DNA from: a virus
Lineage: Duplodnaviria; Heunggongvirae; Uroviricota; Caudoviricetes
Virus record (IMG/VR): IMGVR_UViG_3300028534_000003
Coordinates: 1-33,089 of that record
Direction: 5' to 3' (one strand)
Length of the DNA: 33,089 nt
The position numbers and the translations under genes were made by a program. Each line of letters starts with the position of its first letter. The stretch's first letter is position 1. This document shows, piece after piece, positions 1,478-7,046 of this stretch. Under the pieces are notes generated by a model that made no database searches, was not told the DNA's origin, and saw nothing but the letters and a program-made list of their open reading frames with translations.

Positions 1478-2077
1478 ATGGGTAAAAATAACGATAAATG
1501 CAAGAGAATACCAACATCAGTTATTGATAAGGTTATCGATGATGAGGTGTGGAGTAGTAATCTAGTACCAATAATTAGTGATGGCAGTAATCATACTGCA
1601 TATATCAGTAGTGAGATTAGTAGTCCGATTGAATACAATAAGTTCGTTCACTTCTTAGGTATGCTAGGTAAGGATGATAAAGTTAAGTTGTACTTGAATA
1701 GTCCTGGTGGGATGATTGATAGTTGTATGATGATTAGTAATGCTATTAAGGACAGTAAAGCTACTGTTGTGGCTAGAATTGAAGGTGGTGCTGCTAGTGC
1801 TGCTACATTCATTGCAATGATGTGTGATAAGGTTGAAGTAGGTGATGATGCTCATTTCATGATACACAATTATAGCCATAGGGCATCAGGAACTGGTAAT
1901 CAGGTTAGAGAGTATGTCGAGTTCATGGATAGAGAATTAAAGAGTACATTTAAGAGAGTATATAAAGGTATATTAACTAAAGATGAAATAGTTAGTGTAG
2001 TTGAGCAGGATAAAGAGATATGGATTGGTGCTGAAGAGCTAAGAGATAGACTAAATAAGATTGGTAAATTAGCATGA
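1478..2077 (+). CDS. clpP: ClpP-like (S14) serine protease
   Basis: LYLNSPGG, AASAAT (catalytic Ser), FMIH (His) and DKEIWIGAEE (Asp region). Start moved from 1424 to ATG 1478 because of GGAG at 1469-1472 and the promoter at 1414-1446. Confidence 0.85.
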   Translation: MGKNNDKCKRIPTSVIDKVIDDEVWSSNLVPIISDGSNHTAYISSEISSPIEYNKFVHFLGMLGKDDKVKLYLNSPGGMIDSCMMISNAIKDSKATVVARIEGGAASAATFIAMMCDKVEVGDDAHFMIHNYSHRASGTGNQVREYVEFMDRELKSTFKRVYKGILTKDEIVSVVEQDKEIWIGAEELRDRLNKIGKLA

Positions 2078-3447
2078 GTAGATATGTAATACTAGATACT
2101 AATATACTGTTGTTGGATAGTAATAACTTATTTGAGTTTGGTGATGCCATTGTGGTGTTGCCAGAGACTGTGCTAGCTGAGCTAGATAGTAAGAAGAGTG
2201 GGTTTGATGAGATTAACTTCCAGGCTAGGGCATGTGGTAGATTACTAGCTAGTGCTGTGGTTGATAATATTGAGACTGATGAAGATTGTGTGTTCACTAG
2301 ATTGGTGATAGGTAATACTAACATATTAGTTGTTAGTATAGCTGATTACTATGATGCTGATGCTGATACTAGTAGTAAGAATGATCAACGTATATTATAT
2401 GTGGCTAATGAGTTAAAAGGCAGAGGATTAGACGTAGAGGTAGTAAGCAATGATGTGATGATGCGGTTAAGAGCAATTGCTGTAGGTATTGATGCCACTG
2501 ATATGAAAGCTGTGGATGATGTAGAGTTTGAGTTCGTTAAAGAGTTTGTTGTAGATGATTCAGAAGTGTTTAGAACACTACATAATGCAAGTATATTGGA
2601 CGTAGATAGTGATTATAAACTAGAGAATTATAATTATAAGTTCACATGTGCTACTACAGAACAGGTTAAATTAGCTACTATTAGTAGAGGGTTTATTAAT
2701 GTACTTGGTAAAGATACTGAGAGAGAGCTAAGGCGGCAAGATTGTGCACCTATTAATAGTGAGCAATTAATGGCAAGTAAAGCTATTCAAGATACTACTG
2801 TTGATATAGTAATGATTGAGGGACAAGCAGGCAGTGGTAAGAATATAGTGGCAGTTAGCAACGCTATAAAGCTGATGAGAACTAATAAGGATAAATACAG
2901 TAGTATTGTATATATCAGAAGCCCACAAAATGATGAAAGTATGGGTGAAGATATAGGATACTTAAGCACTAATGAGGCCAAGATGGATGTATACTTAGGT
3001 GCTATGGACGATACTCTTGATTTCATAGTTAGAAGTAGAATAAAGAAAGGTAGTAATGAGAAAGTGCAAGAGTACGAAGATAGGGTAGCTAGAGAGTTGA
3101 GTAAACTTATTGCTGACTATGGTGTAACTAGCACAATAAGTACAGGACTAAGAGGTAGAACATTTCATGATAGTATTGTTATAATTGATGAAGCACAAAA
3201 CACTAGTCCTGCTACAATGGTTAAGATACTGACTAGGGTTGGCAAGAATTGCAAGGTAATAGTTATAGGTAGTCAAAAGCAAATTGATAATAAATATATT
3301 AGTAAATACACTAATGGGTTAGCAGTGCTGATGAATGAAGCTAGTATCAGAAATATTGATACTGATGTTAATATGTATGCTATTACATTAGATAAAGTTG
3401 TTAGAAGTGATATGGCAGAATTTGCTGAAGCACTGTTCAGTAAATAA
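2074..3447 (+). CDS. phoH: PIN domain-PhoH ATPase fusion (PhoH2/YlaK-like)
   Basis: PIN acidic residues in ILDTNILL, VLAELD, KNDQRIL and VSNDV. Walker A GQAGSGKN, LRGRTF, Walker B IIDEAQN. ATGA overlap with the clpP-like stop. Confidence 0.9.
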   Translation: MSRYVILDTNILLLDSNNLFEFGDAIVVLPETVLAELDSKKSGFDEINFQARACGRLLASAVVDNIETDEDCVFTRLVIGNTNILVVSIADYYDADADTSSKNDQRILYVANELKGRGLDVEVVSNDVMMRLRAIAVGIDATDMKAVDDVEFEFVKEFVVDDSEVFRTLHNASILDVDSDYKLENYNYKFTCATTEQVKLATISRGFINVLGKDTERELRRQDCAPINSEQLMASKAIQDTTVDIVMIEGQAGSGKNIVAVSNAIKLMRTNKDKYSSIVYIRSPQNDESMGEDIGYLSTNEAKMDVYLGAMDDTLDFIVRSRIKKGSNEKVQEYEDRVARELSKLIADYGVTSTISTGLRGRTFHDSIVIIDEAQNTSPATMVKILTRVGKNCKVIVIGSQKQIDNKYISKYTNGLAVLMNEASIRNIDTDVNMYAITLDKVVRSDMAEFAEALFSK

Positions 3448-3462
3448 ATAAAGGAGGTTAAG

Positions 3463-3510
3463 ATGGCTTGTAAGAAGAAAAAGAAATCAACTACTAAGAA
3501 AAAGAAGTAG
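3463..3510 (+). CDS. 15-aa lysine-rich micro-ORF MACKKKKKSTTKKKK
   Basis: Strong SD AAGGAGG at 3451-3457, 5 nt before ATG; not in the ORF track. Confidence 0.55.
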   Translation: MACKKKKKSTTKKKK

Positions 3511-3543
3511 TTAAGTAACAGTTAAGGTAAGTAGTGATATACT
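3511..3543 (+). promoter_or_regulatory. Promoter for the leader and tRNA cluster
   Basis: TTAAG-taacag-TTAAG-gtaagtagtga-TATACT. Confidence 0.7.
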
Positions 3544-3572
3544 TACAGTAAGAATACGGAAAGGTAGATAAT

Positions 3573-3659
3573 ATGAGAGAATTTGCAATTAATATAAATC
3601 AGTTTAATCAATGGCATCCGCATAGCGGAGACTCTCTCATGGAATGGATTGATATTTAG
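3573..3659 (+). CDS. 28-aa putative attenuator leader peptide MREFAININQFNQWHPHSGDSLMEWIDI
   Basis: SD-like GGAAAGGT at 3558-3565. Codons 7-18 are 10/12 Asn/Gln/Trp/His/Pro/Ser, matching the six downstream tRNAs. Not in the ORF track. Confidence 0.7.
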   Translation: MREFAININQFNQWHPHSGDSLMEWIDI

Positions 3660-3680
3660 TATTGATCTATAATTGCCTAG

Positions 3681-3710
3681 AGGGGGTCGAGAAATCGGCT
3701 CCCTTTTTTT
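3681..3710 (+). terminator. Intrinsic terminator
   Basis: AGGGGGTCGA-GAAA-TCGGCTCCCT stem running into a T7 tract. Confidence 0.85.
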
Positions 3711-3741
3711 AATGCCCGAAAGTGGCAGTAAACTATTAGAT

Positions 3742-3819
3742 GGCAGGTGTAGCTCAGTTGGTTAGAGCGTCTGGCTGTGGTCCGGAAGGTCGCGAGTTCA
3801 AATCTCGTCATTTACCCCA
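3742..3819 (+). tRNA. tRNA-His(GUG)
   Basis: G-1, C73 and encoded CCA; anticodon arm TCTGG-CT GTG GT-CCGGA; T arm GCGAG-TTCAAAT-CTCGT. The acceptor stem has a C2:A71 mismatch. Confidence 0.9.
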
Positions 3820-3823
3820 AAAT

Positions 3824-3901
3824 GTGAGTATAGCGTGAGTCTGGTTTACGCAGTCGCTTGGAACGACAGATACGTAGGTTCAAATCCTACTGCTCGCACC
3901 A
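3824..3901 (+). tRNA. tRNA-Pro(UGG), atypical
   Basis: Acceptor GTGAGTA/TGCTCGC, A73, CCA; anticodon GTCG-CT TGG AA-CGAC (4-bp stem, A37); T arm GTAGG-TTCAAAT-CCTAC. Confidence 0.8.
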
Positions 3902-3904
3902 TAA

Positions 3905-3980
3905 TGGCGTGTAGCAAAGCGGTATGGGCAACTGGTTTTGATCCAGTGATTCGCAGGTTCGATCCCTGCCACGCCATCCA
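3905..3980 (+). tRNA. tRNA-Gln(UUG)
   Basis: Acceptor TGGCGTG/CACGCCA (U1-A72); anticodon ACTGG-TT TTG AT-CCAGT; T arm GCAGG-TTCGATC-CCTGC; CCA. Confidence 0.9.
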
Positions 3981-3990
3981 TTACAATTAA

Positions 3991-4064
3991 TTCCCGGTAG
4001 CTTGAAGGTCAAGCAGGTGTCTGTTAAACACAAGTTGGAGGTTCGATTCCTCCTCGGGGAGCCA
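3991..4064 (+). tRNA. tRNA-Asn(GUU)
   Basis: Acceptor TTCCCGG/TCGGGGA, G73, CCA; anticodon GTGT-CT GTT AA-ACAC; T arm GGAGG-TTCGATT-CCTCC. Confidence 0.9.
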
Positions 4065-4071
4065 TACATAA

Positions 4072-4147
4072 GTGTCGGTAGCTCCAATGGCAGAGCGTCG
4101 GATTCCAAATCCGAATGTTCAAGGTTCAAGTCCTTGTCGGCATGCCA
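4072..4147 (+). tRNA. tRNA-Trp(CCA)
   Basis: D arm GCTC/GAGC; anticodon TCGGA-TT CCA AA-TCCGA; T arm CAAGG-TTCAAGT-CCTTG; G73, CCA. Confidence 0.9.
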
Positions 4148-4148
4148 A

Positions 4149-4235
4149 GGTAAGTTGCTAGAGAGGGAATAGGCCCGGTTGCTAACCGGAGACAGGGTAA
4201 TACCTACATAGGTTCAAGTCCTATACTTACCGCCA
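4149..4235 (+). tRNA. tRNA-Ser(GCU)
   Basis: Acceptor GGTAAGT/ACTTACC, G73, CCA; anticodon CCGG-TT GCT AA-CCGG; long variable arm; T arm ATAGG-TTCAAGT-CCTAT. Confidence 0.9.
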
Positions 4236-4236
4236 A

Positions 4237-4269
4237 TTAAGACTACACTAAGCCAAATGATTGTATAGT
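4237..4269 (+). promoter_or_regulatory. Promoter for the terminase genes
   Basis: TTAAG-actaca-CTAAG-ccaaatgattg-TATAGT. Confidence 0.6.
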
Positions 4270-4300
4270 ATCGTATACAATACGATAATTAGGAATACAG

Positions 4301-5161
4301 ATGGCTAAAAAATCAAAAGAAAAAGTAAAACTGTTCACACTAGATGAGTTTGAAGAGAGAGCTGAAGATATAGAGGTAAAGATTAGGCATGAGACTAGTC
4401 CAATACCACAAGGATTAACTAAAGACAAGTTAAAGAGATTATTAGGTAGACAGTTGTCAAGTAGAGTAACTGATGGTGTAATGGAACTAATAAAGAATAT
4501 GGAAGCTGATACCGATTTGGATCAGGATAGCATGGAAGAAAGGGTAGTAAGTTACATCAGCATCATGCAAGAAATGAAAGTTAGTATGACTCAGTACGTT
4601 AATGCAGTTAAATACTGTGTACTGAAGAGAAACTTGAGGAGTAATAAGAAGGCATACGAGATAGTATTCCCAGACAGGGTTGCTGCATATGAAGCTGAGG
4701 TTAAAAGACGTGCTGAAGCTGGTGAACCAGCAATGAAGGTAACACTAGATACAAAGGTTAGTAACTACAACTCAGGTGATTTAGTTGTGCGAATAGATCA
4801 AATGATGGCAGTAGAGTGGTCATTGTTGCACTATAATGATAGAGAGAATGCATTATATACACTAATTAATTTAAGTAAGGGTAAAGCAGCTCCGGCTCCG
4901 GATGGATCACAGCTGACAGTTACACCAATGGTACAAATGCAAGCTGCTAGTAAAGTAGTTGATATACTAGCCCCTGCTGAAGAGAAAGCTGCTAAGTTAG
5001 ATATTAATGTCAGTAGTGGTATACAACAGAACCTAGCTGAACAATTGGCTAAGATGACTGAAATACAAATGGCTAAGTTAAAAAGTGGTAGTAGCATAGA
5101 AGATATACAGCAGATAGGATTGAATAGCGACACTATTGATGCGGAGGTTATAGATGAATGA
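4301..5161 (+). CDS. Probable terminase small subunit (N4 gp69-like position)
   Basis: Directly upstream of and overlapping terL; YVNAVKY, AYEIVFPDR and VQMQAASK resemble N4-like small subunits. Confidence 0.55.
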   Translation: MAKKSKEKVKLFTLDEFEERAEDIEVKIRHETSPIPQGLTKDKLKRLLGRQLSSRVTDGVMELIKNMEADTDLDQDSMEERVVSYISIMQEMKVSMTQYVNAVKYCVLKRNLRSNKKAYEIVFPDRVAAYEAEVKRRAEAGEPAMKVTLDTKVSNYNSGDLVVRIDQMMAVEWSLLHYNDRENALYTLINLSKGKAAPAPDGSQLTVTPMVQMQAASKVVDILAPAEEKAAKLDINVSSGIQQNLAEQLAKMTEIQMAKLKSGSSIEDIQQIGLNSDTIDAEVIDE

Positions 5162-7046
5162 TGAGATACTAGATAAAAAGCCTGCAGAAGTAGTTATAGA
5201 TGACTCAGCTAGTAATGATATTAGTGGTGATGATAGTGTTGCCTACGAAAGTTGGATGAAGTACGAGGAAGCTGTTATTGATGGCAAGGAGCGTAAGCCA
5301 AAAGATGAACCAATAATGGATCAAACTGCATTGAAAGGATTACAGAGTAAATTTGAGTTCAATGTTGATCATGCGTTAGATAATATAGACTTAAGCTTTC
5401 CAAACTATACTCCAAGCAAAGATGCTATAGAATTTTTCAATATAATGAGACTAGTATATGGTGAAGACTTTGAAACCCCAAACGCAATAGTTCACTACTT
5501 CTTCGTTGATCTGGTATTCAATAATGTTACAAGAGAAATGTTTCCATATCCAAAAGAGATAACTGATAAGATAAGATTAAACCCAAAGAAAATAGCCATA
5601 ATAGCTGCTAGGTTTACTAGTAAGAGTACTGTGCTGACTGCATTCATGCCTATATACTGCGCAATAACTGGTAAGATGCCTGGGTTTGGTCCAGTTATGT
5701 TCTGGGTTGCATTCGGTGACTCTCAACAAGCTGGTGCTAAAGTTCAGGCAAACACTATCAGGGATATATGTATGGATAGTGCATTCTGCAAGGAGCACTT
5801 CGAGAAGATGAGATTTACTGATGAAGAGTGTGAGTTCATTCGGAGAGGTAGTGAGCCAGTTAAGAAGAGAGCATTTATGTTCAAAACTAAGGGTGCTGCT
5901 GGTGGGTCAGTAAGGGGAATCAGGTATAAAACTGAACGGCCACAAATACTGAGTTTCGATGATGCTATTAAGAATGAAGCTGATGCAAACAGTCCAATAA
6001 TTATGGCTAAGTTAAAGAGTATGATTTACTCTGATGCTGAAAATGCACTAGGTAAAAAGGGTAAGATTATAATTGTTAATACACCATTTAATAAGAAAGA
6101 CCCAGTATATAGTGCGCTAGAGAATGGTGTGTGGACACCACTAGCTATACCATTATGTGAGAAAATAGAAATTGGTATGAGTAAGGAAGACTATCGAGGT
6201 AGCTGGGAAGCAATGAAAAGTTTCGAGGAAGTATACGAAAGATATGTAGATGCTGTTCAGGGACAAACACTTAGGGAGTTCAACCAAGAGATGATGCTAC
6301 GAATTAGTAACGCTGATGATAGAATGATTAAAGATGATATGCTGAATAAATATAGTAGAAAAGTTATAATGCGTTCACTAGATAAATTTACTATACTAAT
6401 AACAACAGACTTCACAGCTAGTAATAGTAAGAAAGGTGACTATAGTGGAATAGCTGTGTGGGCTATAGGTAGTGATAATGATACATTTCTACTAGACTTA
6501 GAGCTTAGGAAGAGAACTATACAAGAGCAGTATGAAGCACTGTTCAGGATGGTTAGTAAATGGGGTCGAAATGGTAGAGTACTTGAGGTAGGTATTGAGA
6601 TTGATGGTCAGCAGAAGCTAAATGTGTTTGCATTAAAGAAGATGATGATAGAAAAGAACATATGGTTCAGATTCGCTAGACAGAAGGATGCCCCTAATGG
6701 TAGAGAGGGTATAATGAGTAGGTCAGCTGGTGGTAATAAGTTAGAACGGTTCAGGTATATGATGCCAAGGTTTGAGATGGGTAAGATGTGGTTTCCAGAA
6801 GAACTAGACGATACTCCTGATATGAAAGAGATGATGGAAGAGCTAAAGTACTTAACATATGATAGTATAGGAAGTACACATGATGATGGATTAGACCTAA
6901 TAAGTCAATTAGGAATGATTGATTACATATTACCAACACAGGAGTTCGATGTAGATGATGGGCTCACAGAGGCTGACAGTAACATATGGGCCAGCTTTGA
7001 GGACGAGGATGATGACTATACTAGCAACAGCTCAGTTGTATTTTAG
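5154..7046 (+). CDS. terL: Terminase large subunit
   Basis: Walker A AARFTSKST, SVRGIRY...RPQILSFDD (Walker B), nuclease motifs ITTDFTAS, DYSGIAVW and HDDGLD. Confidence 0.9.
   Translation: MNDEILDKKPAEVVIDDSASNDISGDDSVAYESWMKYEEAVIDGKERKPKDEPIMDQTALKGLQSKFEFNVDHALDNIDLSFPNYTPSKDAIEFFNIMRLVYGEDFETPNAIVHYFFVDLVFNNVTREMFPYPKEITDKIRLNPKKIAIIAARFTSKSTVLTAFMPIYCAITGKMPGFGPVMFWVAFGDSQQAGAKVQANTIRDICMDSAFCKEHFEKMRFTDEECEFIRRGSEPVKKRAFMFKTKGAAGGSVRGIRYKTERPQILSFDDAIKNEADANSPIIMAKLKSMIYSDAENALGKKGKIIIVNTPFNKKDPVYSALENGVWTPLAIPLCEKIEIGMSKEDYRGSWEAMKSFEEVYERYVDAVQGQTLREFNQEMMLRISNADDRMIKDDMLNKYSRKVIMRSLDKFTILITTDFTASNSKKGDYSGIAVWAIGSDNDTFLLDLELRKRTIQEQYEALFRMVSKWGRNGRVLEVGIEIDGQQKLNVFALKKMMIEKNIWFRFARQKDAPNGREGIMSRSAGGNKLERFRYMMPRFEMGKMWFPEELDDTPDMKEMMEELKYLTYDSIGSTHDDGLDLISQLGMIDYILPTQEFDVDDGLTEADSNIWASFEDEDDDYTSNSSVVF

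Follow-up and report, generated by a model that had tools for sequence, protein, structure and literature searches.

We suggest that a short leader unit ahead of six phage tRNA genes is a ribosome-mediated transcription attenuator of the leader-peptide, trp-type kind, a reading to which we give a probability of about 0.78. The evidence for it is comparative only, with no experiment and no RNA or ribosome data. By this reading, the phage probably makes its six tRNAs only when ribosomes read the matching codons slowly. The unit lies in what we call the window, the whole 33,089-nucleotide stretch of DNA analyzed here (positions 1 to 33,089 of IMG/VR record IMGVR_UViG_3300028534_000003).

A leader unit ahead of six tRNA genes

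Within positions 3515-4235 a promoter-like site comes first, followed by a Shine-Dalgarno site and the 28-codon leader ORF, then an intrinsic terminator and finally six tRNA genes. The features are as follows.

3515-3543, plus strand: promoter-like site with -35 GTAACA, a 17-nt spacer and a TG-extended -10 TATACT; found by consensus scan, a match to consensus only, without transcription start site data
3558-3564, plus strand: Shine-Dalgarno site GGAAAGG, with the ATG 8 nt downstream; read from the sequence
3573-3659, plus strand: leader ORF MREFAININQFNQWHPHSGDSLMEWIDI, 28 codons, stop TAG at 3657-3659; from the ORF list
3573-3581, plus strand: region 1, comprising the start codon and following bases, which supplies the 5' arm of protector stem P1; from the minimum-energy fold
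3591-3626, plus strand: sensor codons 7-18, of which 10/12 are cognate, with the core N Q W H P H S at 3606-3626
3630-3640, plus strand: region 2, which pairs with region 1 (via 3633-3640) or with the terminator 5' arm (via 3630-3638); from folding
3644-3670, plus strand: hairpin H2, formed by arms 3644-3655 and 3659-3670, its apical loop being the site of the leader stop codon; from folding
3680-3710, plus strand: intrinsic terminator, stem 3680-3690/3695-3705, GAAA loop, 7-T run at 3704-3710, with region 3 at 3680-3688; from the terminator scan
3711-3742, plus strand: 32-nt spacer with a small hairpin (TGCC 3713-3716 / GGCA 3724-3727) and no promoter-like site; from the sequence and the promoter scan
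3743-4235, plus strand: six tRNA genes, His(gtg), Pro(tgg), Gln(ttg), Asn(gtt), Trp(cca) and Ser(gct); from ARAGORN

The original prediction had placed a promoter, a leader ORF, a terminator and genes for tRNA-His, Pro, Gln, Asn, Trp and Ser here, and the sequence, the ORF list, ARAGORN and the scans find each of them at its predicted position, the promoter as a consensus match only. The six tRNA genes score 37.8-55.6 bits with the Rfam tRNA model and are the sole tRNAs of the 97-kb genome. It had also been stated that no promoter motif separates the leader unit from the tRNAs, and the consensus scan found none on the plus strand between 3544 and 4300. That scan did not flag the fresh promoter claimed at 4237, though the local sequence there resembles the leader promoter, and a genome-wide promoter motif search gave no useful result. 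The source is a marine, N4-like phage from an epibiont metagenome. Only two DNA runs contain 3300-4400, one from the epibiont metagenome and one from a hydrothermal-vent metagenome, and no RNA runs containing this interval are listed.

Alternative folds and a proposed switch

Both of the pairings predicted for region 2 appear on folding, the protector stem P1 (3573-3580 with 3633-3640) in the minimum-energy fold, with a duplex energy of -11.8 kcal/mol, and the 9-bp antiterminator (3630-3638 with 3680-3688) in the fold of the nascent RNA. Nascent RNA 3630-3692 forms the antiterminator together with H2 at -23.1 kcal/mol, and an equally good nascent fold was reached by just 3 of 1000 shuffles for the window unit and by 0 of 1000 for the related unit L171. 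With the complete terminator included there are two states, at -27.0 and -24.3 kcal/mol; the energy of the terminator hairpin is -18.2 kcal/mol. The effect of a ribosome was modelled by folding solely the RNA downstream of it. This replaced equilibrium folding with a simple ribosome mask, in which the terminator was always retained, because the mask let pairs form across the ribosome. A caveat had been raised that a ribosome stalled at the Pro, His and Ser codons 16-18 may still mask 3630-3638. It stands in part: a stall at codons 16-18 would mask the first bases of this arm, and a stall at codons 7-15 would leave it free, the overlap having been judged by footprint arithmetic only.

The sequences themselves establish the anatomy, the codon match and the alternative folds, together with the conservation of these features in relatives. 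Leader translation, ribosome stalling, read-through and the natural trigger are inferred, and what follows is a proposal. Host RNA polymerase would start near 3550, and a ribosome would load on the nascent leader. Slow reading of Asn, Gln, Trp, His, Pro or Ser(AGY) codons would make the ribosome wait at codons 7-15, leaving region 2 (3630-3638) and H2 free to capture jointly the emerging 5' arm of the terminator (3680-3688), and polymerase would continue into the six tRNA genes. Fast decoding would bring the ribosome to the stop codon, where it would melt H2 and stand between regions 2 and 3; the terminator would form and transcription would end at 3704-3710. If the leader were not translated at all, region 2 would pair with the start codon in P1 and the terminator would again form. 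Since the products of such a switch are the very tRNAs that read the sensor codons, it would constitute a negative feedback supplying these tRNAs on demand.

Related units on one RNA chassis

The window unit shares a common chassis with four related units, L171, L178, L154 unit 2 and L076. It consists of the start-codon stem P1, the antiterminator, a hairpin whose loop contains the stop codon, and the terminator. In the relatives the ORFs of chassis units run to 28-31 codons, all related leaders carry an AAGG/AGGA/GGAG site, located 5-8 nt upstream of the ATG, and an arrangement TTAAG...TGnTAtAcT, similar to the promoter-like site of the window, lies upstream of the leader in all four. The first leader of L154 was not recovered; assemblies break at the T-run.

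Compensatory changes in relatives had been proposed as a check on the alternative stems. The three pairings are retained in 5/5 chassis units, with paired cells at 92.5% for P1 and 91.1% for the antiterminator against 30-65% in slid controls, and each of these two long-range stems has one compensatory pair. Covariation shuffle controls for P1 and the antiterminator were not significant, with five sequences only. The stop codon lies within the H2 loop in 5/5 chassis units, and in the four related units this is so with H2 arms of unrelated sequence. The motif of region 2, the antiterminator arm, is conserved in the five units but falls in each of the three reading frames, so this arm is kept as RNA. 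The peptide tails of the chassis leaders are not conserved.

Sensor codons and the tRNA set

The codon match of the leader core to the tRNAs exceeds chance. As predicted, codons 12-18 (AAT CAA TGG CAT CCG CAT AGC) cover all six tRNA specificities, and codons 7-18 include 10 cognate ones. The six frames of the 97-kb genome contain 194,138 seven-codon windows; 12 of these are fully cognate, and of the 12 just the one at 3606-3626 covers 6/6 tRNAs. Cognate codons make up 11 of the 27 in the whole leader, to be compared with a background of 0.174 (binomial P = 3.8e-3).

The further expectation, that the codon content of leaders should track the tRNA set in relatives, is borne out by L178, L154 unit 2 and L076. 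The sensor codons of L178 (N/T/F/S/H/Q/P) precede tRNA His-Pro-Thr-Asn-Phe-Gln-Ser, so that relative to the window unit Thr and Phe codons have been added together with tRNA-Thr and tRNA-Phe; there are 10 consecutive cognate codons, and the leader covers 7/7 tRNAs. L154 unit 2 has L/S/Y/C codons ahead of tRNA Leu, Cys, Tyr, Ser(tga) and Ser(gct), both Ser codon boxes being used ahead of both Ser tRNAs, and L076 has L/S/Y codons ahead of tRNA Tyr-Leu-Leu-Ser, with neither Cys codons nor a tRNA-Cys. When tRNA sets were shuffled among 10 units, 0/200,000 shuffles reached the observed leader match, and every tRNA was represented in its own leader in 9/10 units. With five lineage representatives the true tRNA assignment ranks 1/120, and the Fisher-combined P is 5e-7. 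The leaders that stand before 18-20 tRNAs have 39-41 codons and use 19 or 20 different amino acids, with chance values of 0.02 and 0.004. The fit is not perfect throughout: the leader of L012 has no Gln codon.

It is unlikely that the switch works as described but responds to host amino-acid supply, or to general translation capacity, and not to a lack of tRNA molecules, stalling on several uncharged tRNAs being then a read-out of host physiology. Classical attenuators such as trp and his are established to sense charging, not tRNA abundance; absent and uncharged tRNA cannot be distinguished by a leader, and the anatomy of the unit is equally compatible with both readings. However, amino-acid starvation is not relieved by extra tRNA, so a phage would gain little from placing tRNA genes behind a switch of that kind, and the tracking of the tRNA set by the sensor codons in each unit, including the two Ser codon boxes, is what tRNA feedback predicts.

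We find it improbable that the ORF and terminator are merely a constitutive, leaky insulator after an upstream operon, with fixed read-through and a codon match due to shared descent or to the composition bias of a peptide with another role. The type I leaders (window, L171 and L038) are homologous and all N/Q/H-rich, so their matches are not independent, and three units fit poorly: L171 has four Asn codons although tRNA-Asn is missing from its vicinity, the Tyr, Ser and Pro codons of L038 have no corresponding tRNAs (P = 0.085), and in L033 (Met, Ala) cognate codons are not enriched (P = 0.19). But three sensor spellings occur on one chassis, each ahead of matching tRNAs, and shared descent or composition would also have to account for a seven-codon core that is unique in the genome, for a region 2 read in three frames beside unconserved peptide tails, and for a stop codon that always falls in the H2 loop. 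The same design recurs, moreover, in the unrelated unit L084, whose leader carries Q..Q.CW before tRNA Trp, Gln and Cys.

Terminators and units that depart from the pattern

Canonical terminators, a hairpin followed by a T-run, are present in the window, L171, L178, L154 unit 2, L076 and L084. In L012, L098, L040, L019 and L033 the ORF is present and a canonical terminator is absent; L012-type units have three conserved alternative hairpins and no clear terminator, and L038 has a 28-bp hairpin spanning the end of the ORF without a T-run. These departures lend some support to the idea that leader translation controls RNA processing, stability or repeated initiation (through occlusion of the start codon by P1) and not termination, for example by making the tRNA precursor accessible or inaccessible to a nuclease at some site, and the start codon is indeed hidden by P1 in all units. 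We nevertheless regard this as very unlikely, given the canonical terminators in the six units named above and, on the five-unit chassis, the complementarity between region 2 and the terminator 5' arm.

It is very unlikely that a separate promoter beyond the terminator drives the tRNAs and that the leader unit has no part in their expression. A sigma-70 scan would miss phage-specific promoters, but the consensus scan found no promoter-like site in the window spacer, and there is little room for one: the first tRNA follows the T-run after 32 nt in the window and after 3 nt (tRNA-Leu) in L154 unit 2, and the distance is 0 nt in L084, where the T-run abuts tRNA-Trp.

Some loci have tRNAs and no leader: L143/L176, L164 and L142 have tRNAs at or near the locus without a leader ORF. 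Relatives without tRNAs at the locus (L002, L027 and L179-L182) have neither such an ORF nor a terminator there. L179-L182 are PIN-PhoH relatives.

Relation to known systems

The enterobacterial leaders trpL, hisL, pheL, leuL, thrL and ilvL likewise have a short leader that is translated and in which regulatory codons abound, together with an intrinsic terminator and an antiterminator that excludes it, and in amino-acid operon attenuators, too, a protector stem leads to termination when the leader is untranslated. The window unit fulfils the attenuator criteria of a short ORF with a ribosome-binding site and an intrinsic terminator before the controlled genes, of regulatory codons that are enriched and tied to those genes, and of an antiterminator that excludes the terminator at comparable stability. 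It does not fulfil the criterion of control over amino-acid biosynthesis or synthetase genes, the downstream genes being six tRNAs, so that tRNA genes and not biosynthetic enzymes would be controlled and the product would be the sensed molecule itself. Multivalent leaders that sense several amino acids, as the phage unit would, are represented by thrL and ilvL. However, amino-acid attenuators carry a run of one codon, whereas phage units list 6-7 specificities once or twice each, and the phage unit further differs in having the start codon as its region 1 and a hairpin within the antiterminator whose loop carries the stop codon.

The pheM leader of E. coli pheST attenuates an aminoacyl-tRNA synthetase and senses one amino acid. 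It shares with the phage unit leader-peptide attenuation of a component of the translation machinery, but it is bacterial, not viral, and controls a synthetase and not tRNAs. T-box riboswitches also sense the state of a specific tRNA through a choice between terminator and antiterminator; they do so by direct binding of uncharged tRNA without translation, using a specifier loop and a T-box motif, whereas the phage unit has a Shine-Dalgarno site and an ORF. Neither T-box nor the Rfam leader families (Trp_leader, His_leader, Thr_leader, Leu_leader and others) matched 3300-4400 at E up to 1, where only tRNA models and chance-level matches were returned. A full-text literature search found no paper on attenuation of tRNA genes.

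Implications

The usual view is that phage tRNA genes are constitutive cargo, there to offset codon usage or to withstand defences that cleave tRNAs. If the attenuator reading is true, the phage gauges how fast the codons of a defined list are decoded and produces the corresponding tRNAs only as they are needed, in a closed feedback loop that acts on the tRNA pool itself. Attenuation, textbook knowledge for amino-acid operons, would then extend to viruses and to a new class of controlled genes. The unit would also be a compact and portable sensor of tRNA availability, about 200 nt long, with a specificity that can be read from its codons and is apparently rewritable, and it would offer a handle on when and why phages need their own tRNAs.

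More tentatively, and as no more than one possibility, we suggest that such units are modular "codon checklist" attenuators in unrelated phage lineages, in which the sensor cassette is rewritten along with the tRNA cargo and long arrays are split, as in L154 and L076, into separately gated sub-operons. They might provide a codon-by-codon measure of whether phage genes can still be decoded in the infected cell, and allow exact replacement of tRNAs that host shut-off has depleted or that anticodon-nuclease defences have cut. The tRNAs carried for His, Asn and Tyr share G34-U35 anticodons, which are targets of some anticodon nucleases.

Searches for further units

A nucleotide search of GenBank phages for cultured relatives gave tRNA-level matches only, and none for the L084 unit. 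The best tRNA match, "Acinetobacter phage MD-2021a", lies between nadA and add and so looks like bacterial DNA. In 596 Gb of prokaryote genomes there were 21 matches to the chassis pattern, none of them beside a tRNA; these were taken to be chance matches and used as a control. In the viral collection the same pattern matched only L076 and L178, both with tRNAs downstream. A search with the hairpin motif TACTGRAAAGTAGYTNC added one new member, L098, the remaining matches being known members or chance. The small hairpin of the window spacer has counterparts at the same position, TGTC/GACA in L154 and a similar stem in L076.

Organization of the tRNA locus

The source virus record is 97,089 bp long with direct terminal repeats, and the window covers its first 33 kb. 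The large terminase has approximately 32% identity to N4-like phage terminases, and the window DNA is present in an epibiont metagenome. The tRNA locus contains the following elements.

2074-3447: PIN-PhoH gene, the first element of the series
3463-3510: 15-codon poly-lysine ORF MACKKKKKSTTKKKK, with a strong AAGGAGG site ahead of it and its end adjoining the leader promoter
3515-3543, plus strand: promoter-like site GTAACA-17-TATACT with a TG extension, from a consensus scan
3558-3564: Shine-Dalgarno site GGAAAGG
3573-3659: leader ORF of 28 codons
3680-3705: stem of an intrinsic terminator, with seven T at 3704-3710, followed by a 32-nt spacer
3743-4235: six tRNA genes, His, Pro, Gln, Asn, Trp and Ser(gct)

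These six tRNAs are the whole tRNA complement of the 97,089-bp genome. The anatomy confirms the layout of leader, terminator and tRNA cluster in the original prediction, whose coordinates were all right to within one or two bases; the promoter it placed at 4237 was not flagged by the consensus scan, which found no further promoter-like site on the plus strand from 3544 to 4300. The phage has no tRNA-Lys. The stretch from the T-run to the first tRNA contains a small hairpin in the window (3713-3727) and in two other virus loci, L154 (8-21) and L076 (8680-8695, minus strand), and it is kept through compensatory changes (TGCC/GGCA in the window versus TGTC/GACA in L154).

Leader codons match the tRNAs behind them

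With conservative wobble (G34 reads C/U, U34 reads A/G and C34 reads G), 11 of the 27 leader codons after the ATG are readable by the six tRNAs, against a background of 0.174 in the phage's long ORFs (P = 3.8e-3). Each of the six tRNAs has at least one codon in the leader, and the cognate run from codon 12 to codon 18 is uninterrupted. Only 12 wholly cognate windows were seen among 194,138 seven-codon windows in the six frames of the 97-kb genome, and the one at 3606-3626 is alone in covering all six tRNAs.

Relatives were found through neighbouring proteins, a tRNA-Gln pattern and a pattern for the RNA chassis, the frame of paired elements around the leader. Four more units (a unit being a leader ORF plus its downstream tRNAs) have this chassis in common with the window. 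In their alignment, A7, the order is Shine-Dalgarno site, ATGAGA, sensor codons, a motif ending CTC[AG]TGG, a stop-codon hairpin, and a terminator beginning GAGGG or AAGGG with six or seven T, then AATG.

Sensor codons and tRNAs of the four related chassis units
L171: N-T-L-N-N-Q-H-T-N-H-Q-P; tRNAs His, Gln, Ser(gct)
L178: N-V-T-F-N-S-H-N-T-F-N-Q-L-P; tRNAs His, Pro, Thr, Asn, Phe, Gln, Ser
L154 unit 2: L-V-L-S-S-Y-C-Y-L-L-S-L-S-L; tRNAs Leu, Cys, Tyr, Ser(tga), Ser(gct)
L076: L-L-S-L-S-L-Y-S-Y-L-L-S-S-S; tRNAs Tyr, Leu(taa), Leu(tag), Ser(tga)

The L178 leader covers all seven of its downstream tRNAs, that of L154 unit 2 draws serine codons from the TCR box as well as the AGY box, in keeping with the two Ser tRNAs behind it, and L076 has neither Cys codons nor tRNA-Cys. 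From these matches, at least three sensor spellings exist on one chassis. L154 unit 2 is internal to a longer tRNA array, 3' of His-Pro-Gln-Asn-Phe-Met, and each spelling fits the tRNAs behind it, not those in front, so the expectation that leader codons track the tRNA set was borne out. In the relatives without tRNAs at the locus (L002, L027 and L179-L182), the ORF and terminator are likewise missing. Contig L170 starts with 57 T (1-57), exactly at the expected terminator T-run; the first leader of L154 is hidden because assemblies of the L170/L154 phage break there.

RNA folding and its conservation

The minimum-energy fold of the whole window leader contains P1, which pairs the start codon (region 1, 3573-3581) with 3633-3640 in region 2, together with hairpin H2 (3644-3670) and the terminator (z = -3.8). 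In the RNA from beyond a stalled ribosome to the terminator loop (3630-3692), 3630-3638 pairs with 3680-3688 (region 3) around H2 at -23.1 kcal/mol; this nascent fold was equalled in 3 of 1000 dinucleotide shuffles of its upstream part, and in none of 1000 for L171. Once the terminator 3' arm is present, the terminator state (-27.0 kcal/mol) lies below the antiterminator state (-24.3 kcal/mol), so that folding kinetics would decide between them, as happens in characterized attenuators. Across the five chassis units, P1 ranges from -9.8 to -13.5 kcal/mol and the nine-base-pair antiterminator duplex from -11 to -15.8 kcal/mol, and the nascent fold is in every case a closing stem with one inner hairpin.

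The original prediction looked to compensatory changes in the stems, and here the support is partial. On A7, 92.5% of P1 cells and 91.1% of antiterminator cells are paired, against 30-65% in slid controls, and each stem has one compensatory pair (A-U twice and G-C twice in P1; C-G three times and A-U twice in the antiterminator, where five further pairs are altered on one side only), but with only five sequences the shuffle controls for either pairing were not significant. We give more weight to two further features of the five units than to these covariation counts. The H2 arms are unrelated in sequence, yet in each unit the leader stop codon falls within or at the apical loop. Moreover, the leader ORF runs through the region-2 motif in frame 2 in the window, in frame 0 in L171 and L076 and in frame 1 in L178 and L154 unit 2, with no relationship among the peptide tails, so it is as RNA that the motif is conserved. 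Judged by these comparisons, the leader ORF is kept open and ends at one fixed structural position.

A putative attenuator of tRNA genes

Taken together, the observed elements and the inferred steps would make a modified trp-type switch. With a ribosome paused at codons 7-15, its leading edge would not yet have reached 3630 and the antiterminator could assemble from region 2, H2 and region 3, whereas a terminating ribosome would sit on H2 and destroy the antiterminator. As region 1 is the start codon, P1 would additionally block later rounds of initiation. On footprint arithmetic alone, the concern that a stalled ribosome might mask region 2 would hold for codons 16-18, where its first bases would be covered, but not for codons 7-15. 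In L154 unit 2 and L084 the T-run is too close to the first tRNA to leave space for a promoter, so read-through is the only route to their tRNAs; the window gap is 32 nt.

We suggest, with a probability of about 0.78, that the window unit is a ribosome-mediated attenuator gating its tRNAs; only anatomy and comparison support this, and the remainder lacks experiment. The unit meets the structural criteria of the leader-peptide attenuators of amino-acid operons and would work in the same way, but the genes it would control are tRNAs. The design is a variation on leader-peptide attenuation, with tRNA genes as targets. The window unit matched no Rfam leader family, nor the T-box family, and full-text literature searches found no account of leader-peptide attenuation of tRNA genes. 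A record named 'Acinetobacter phage MD-2021a' (L183, CAKLQH020000046.1 18118-20685) has genes for nadA and adenosine deaminase together with a Pro-Arg-His-Pro tRNA operon, and looks like bacterial DNA.

Units in other RNA contexts

The same codon rule is obeyed by units in a different RNA context.

L012: N/Y/S codons; tRNAs Gln, Ser, Asn, Tyr
L098: S-N-Q-Q-Y-N-Y-S-Y; tRNAs Asn, Gln, Ser and a decayed Tyr-like gene
L040 and L019: leaders of 39-41 codons that use 19 and 20 amino acids, respectively; 20 and 18 tRNAs (chance 0.02 and 0.004)
L084/L058: unrelated, with a strong sigma-70 promoter, leader MSQTIRTQLCWPPSGGMS, and a strong terminator with its T-run directly against tRNA-Trp; tRNAs Trp, then Gln, Cys

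For the ten units with small tRNA sets, binomial P ranged from 5.4e-4 to 0.19, and shuffling the sets among them never reached the observed excess (0/200,000). Since these units are not independent, we rely on five lineage representatives, for which the Fisher combination is 5e-7 and the true leader-tRNA assignment ranks first of 120. The 18-tRNA array of L019 is split by two HNH-type endonuclease-like genes (422-907 and 946-1602).

Several units fit poorly. For the four Asn codons of L171 there is no tRNA-Asn within the 10.8-kb locus retrieved, the L038 leader has Tyr, Ser and Pro codons without corresponding tRNAs, and cognate codons are not enriched in L033 (Met, Ala). In L038 a hairpin of approximately 28 bp (6576-6640), whose 5' arm is the leader's last seven codons and stop, replaces the terminator and lacks a T-run; it might serve in processing instead of termination. 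L143/L176, L164 and L142 have tRNAs and no leader ORF. At the same genome position, L143 (60-292) and L176 (3990-4159) carry a conserved, highly structured non-coding leader ahead of tRNA-Asn, without Shine-Dalgarno site or ORF, and with tRNA-Gln further on.

In L012-type units the interval between leader ORF and tRNAs contains YTACTGRAAAGTAGYT, a conserved element present once in each genome (L012:2929-3019, L098:3050-3137, L040:461-589 and L033:3956-4042). It can form three mutually exclusive hairpins, A, extended 2:3 and B; with a ribosome on the leader stop codon, 2:3 would form in place of A+B, and which state ends transcription is unresolved. ARAGORN and Rfam missed tRNA-like remnants in L098 (3138-3221, Tyr-like, anticodon GTA, broken T arm) and L038 (6922-7010, Ser(gct)-like), which suggest that tRNA sets in this group decay, eroding faster than the leaders. 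Finally, large-terminase ORFs of 1000-1200 aa, versus approximately 620, were seen at L027:3769-6777, L016:2087-5152, L038:7896-11504 and L182:6290-9352; L182 has LAGLIDADG/Hom_end Pfam matches, which suggests inteins in the terminase.
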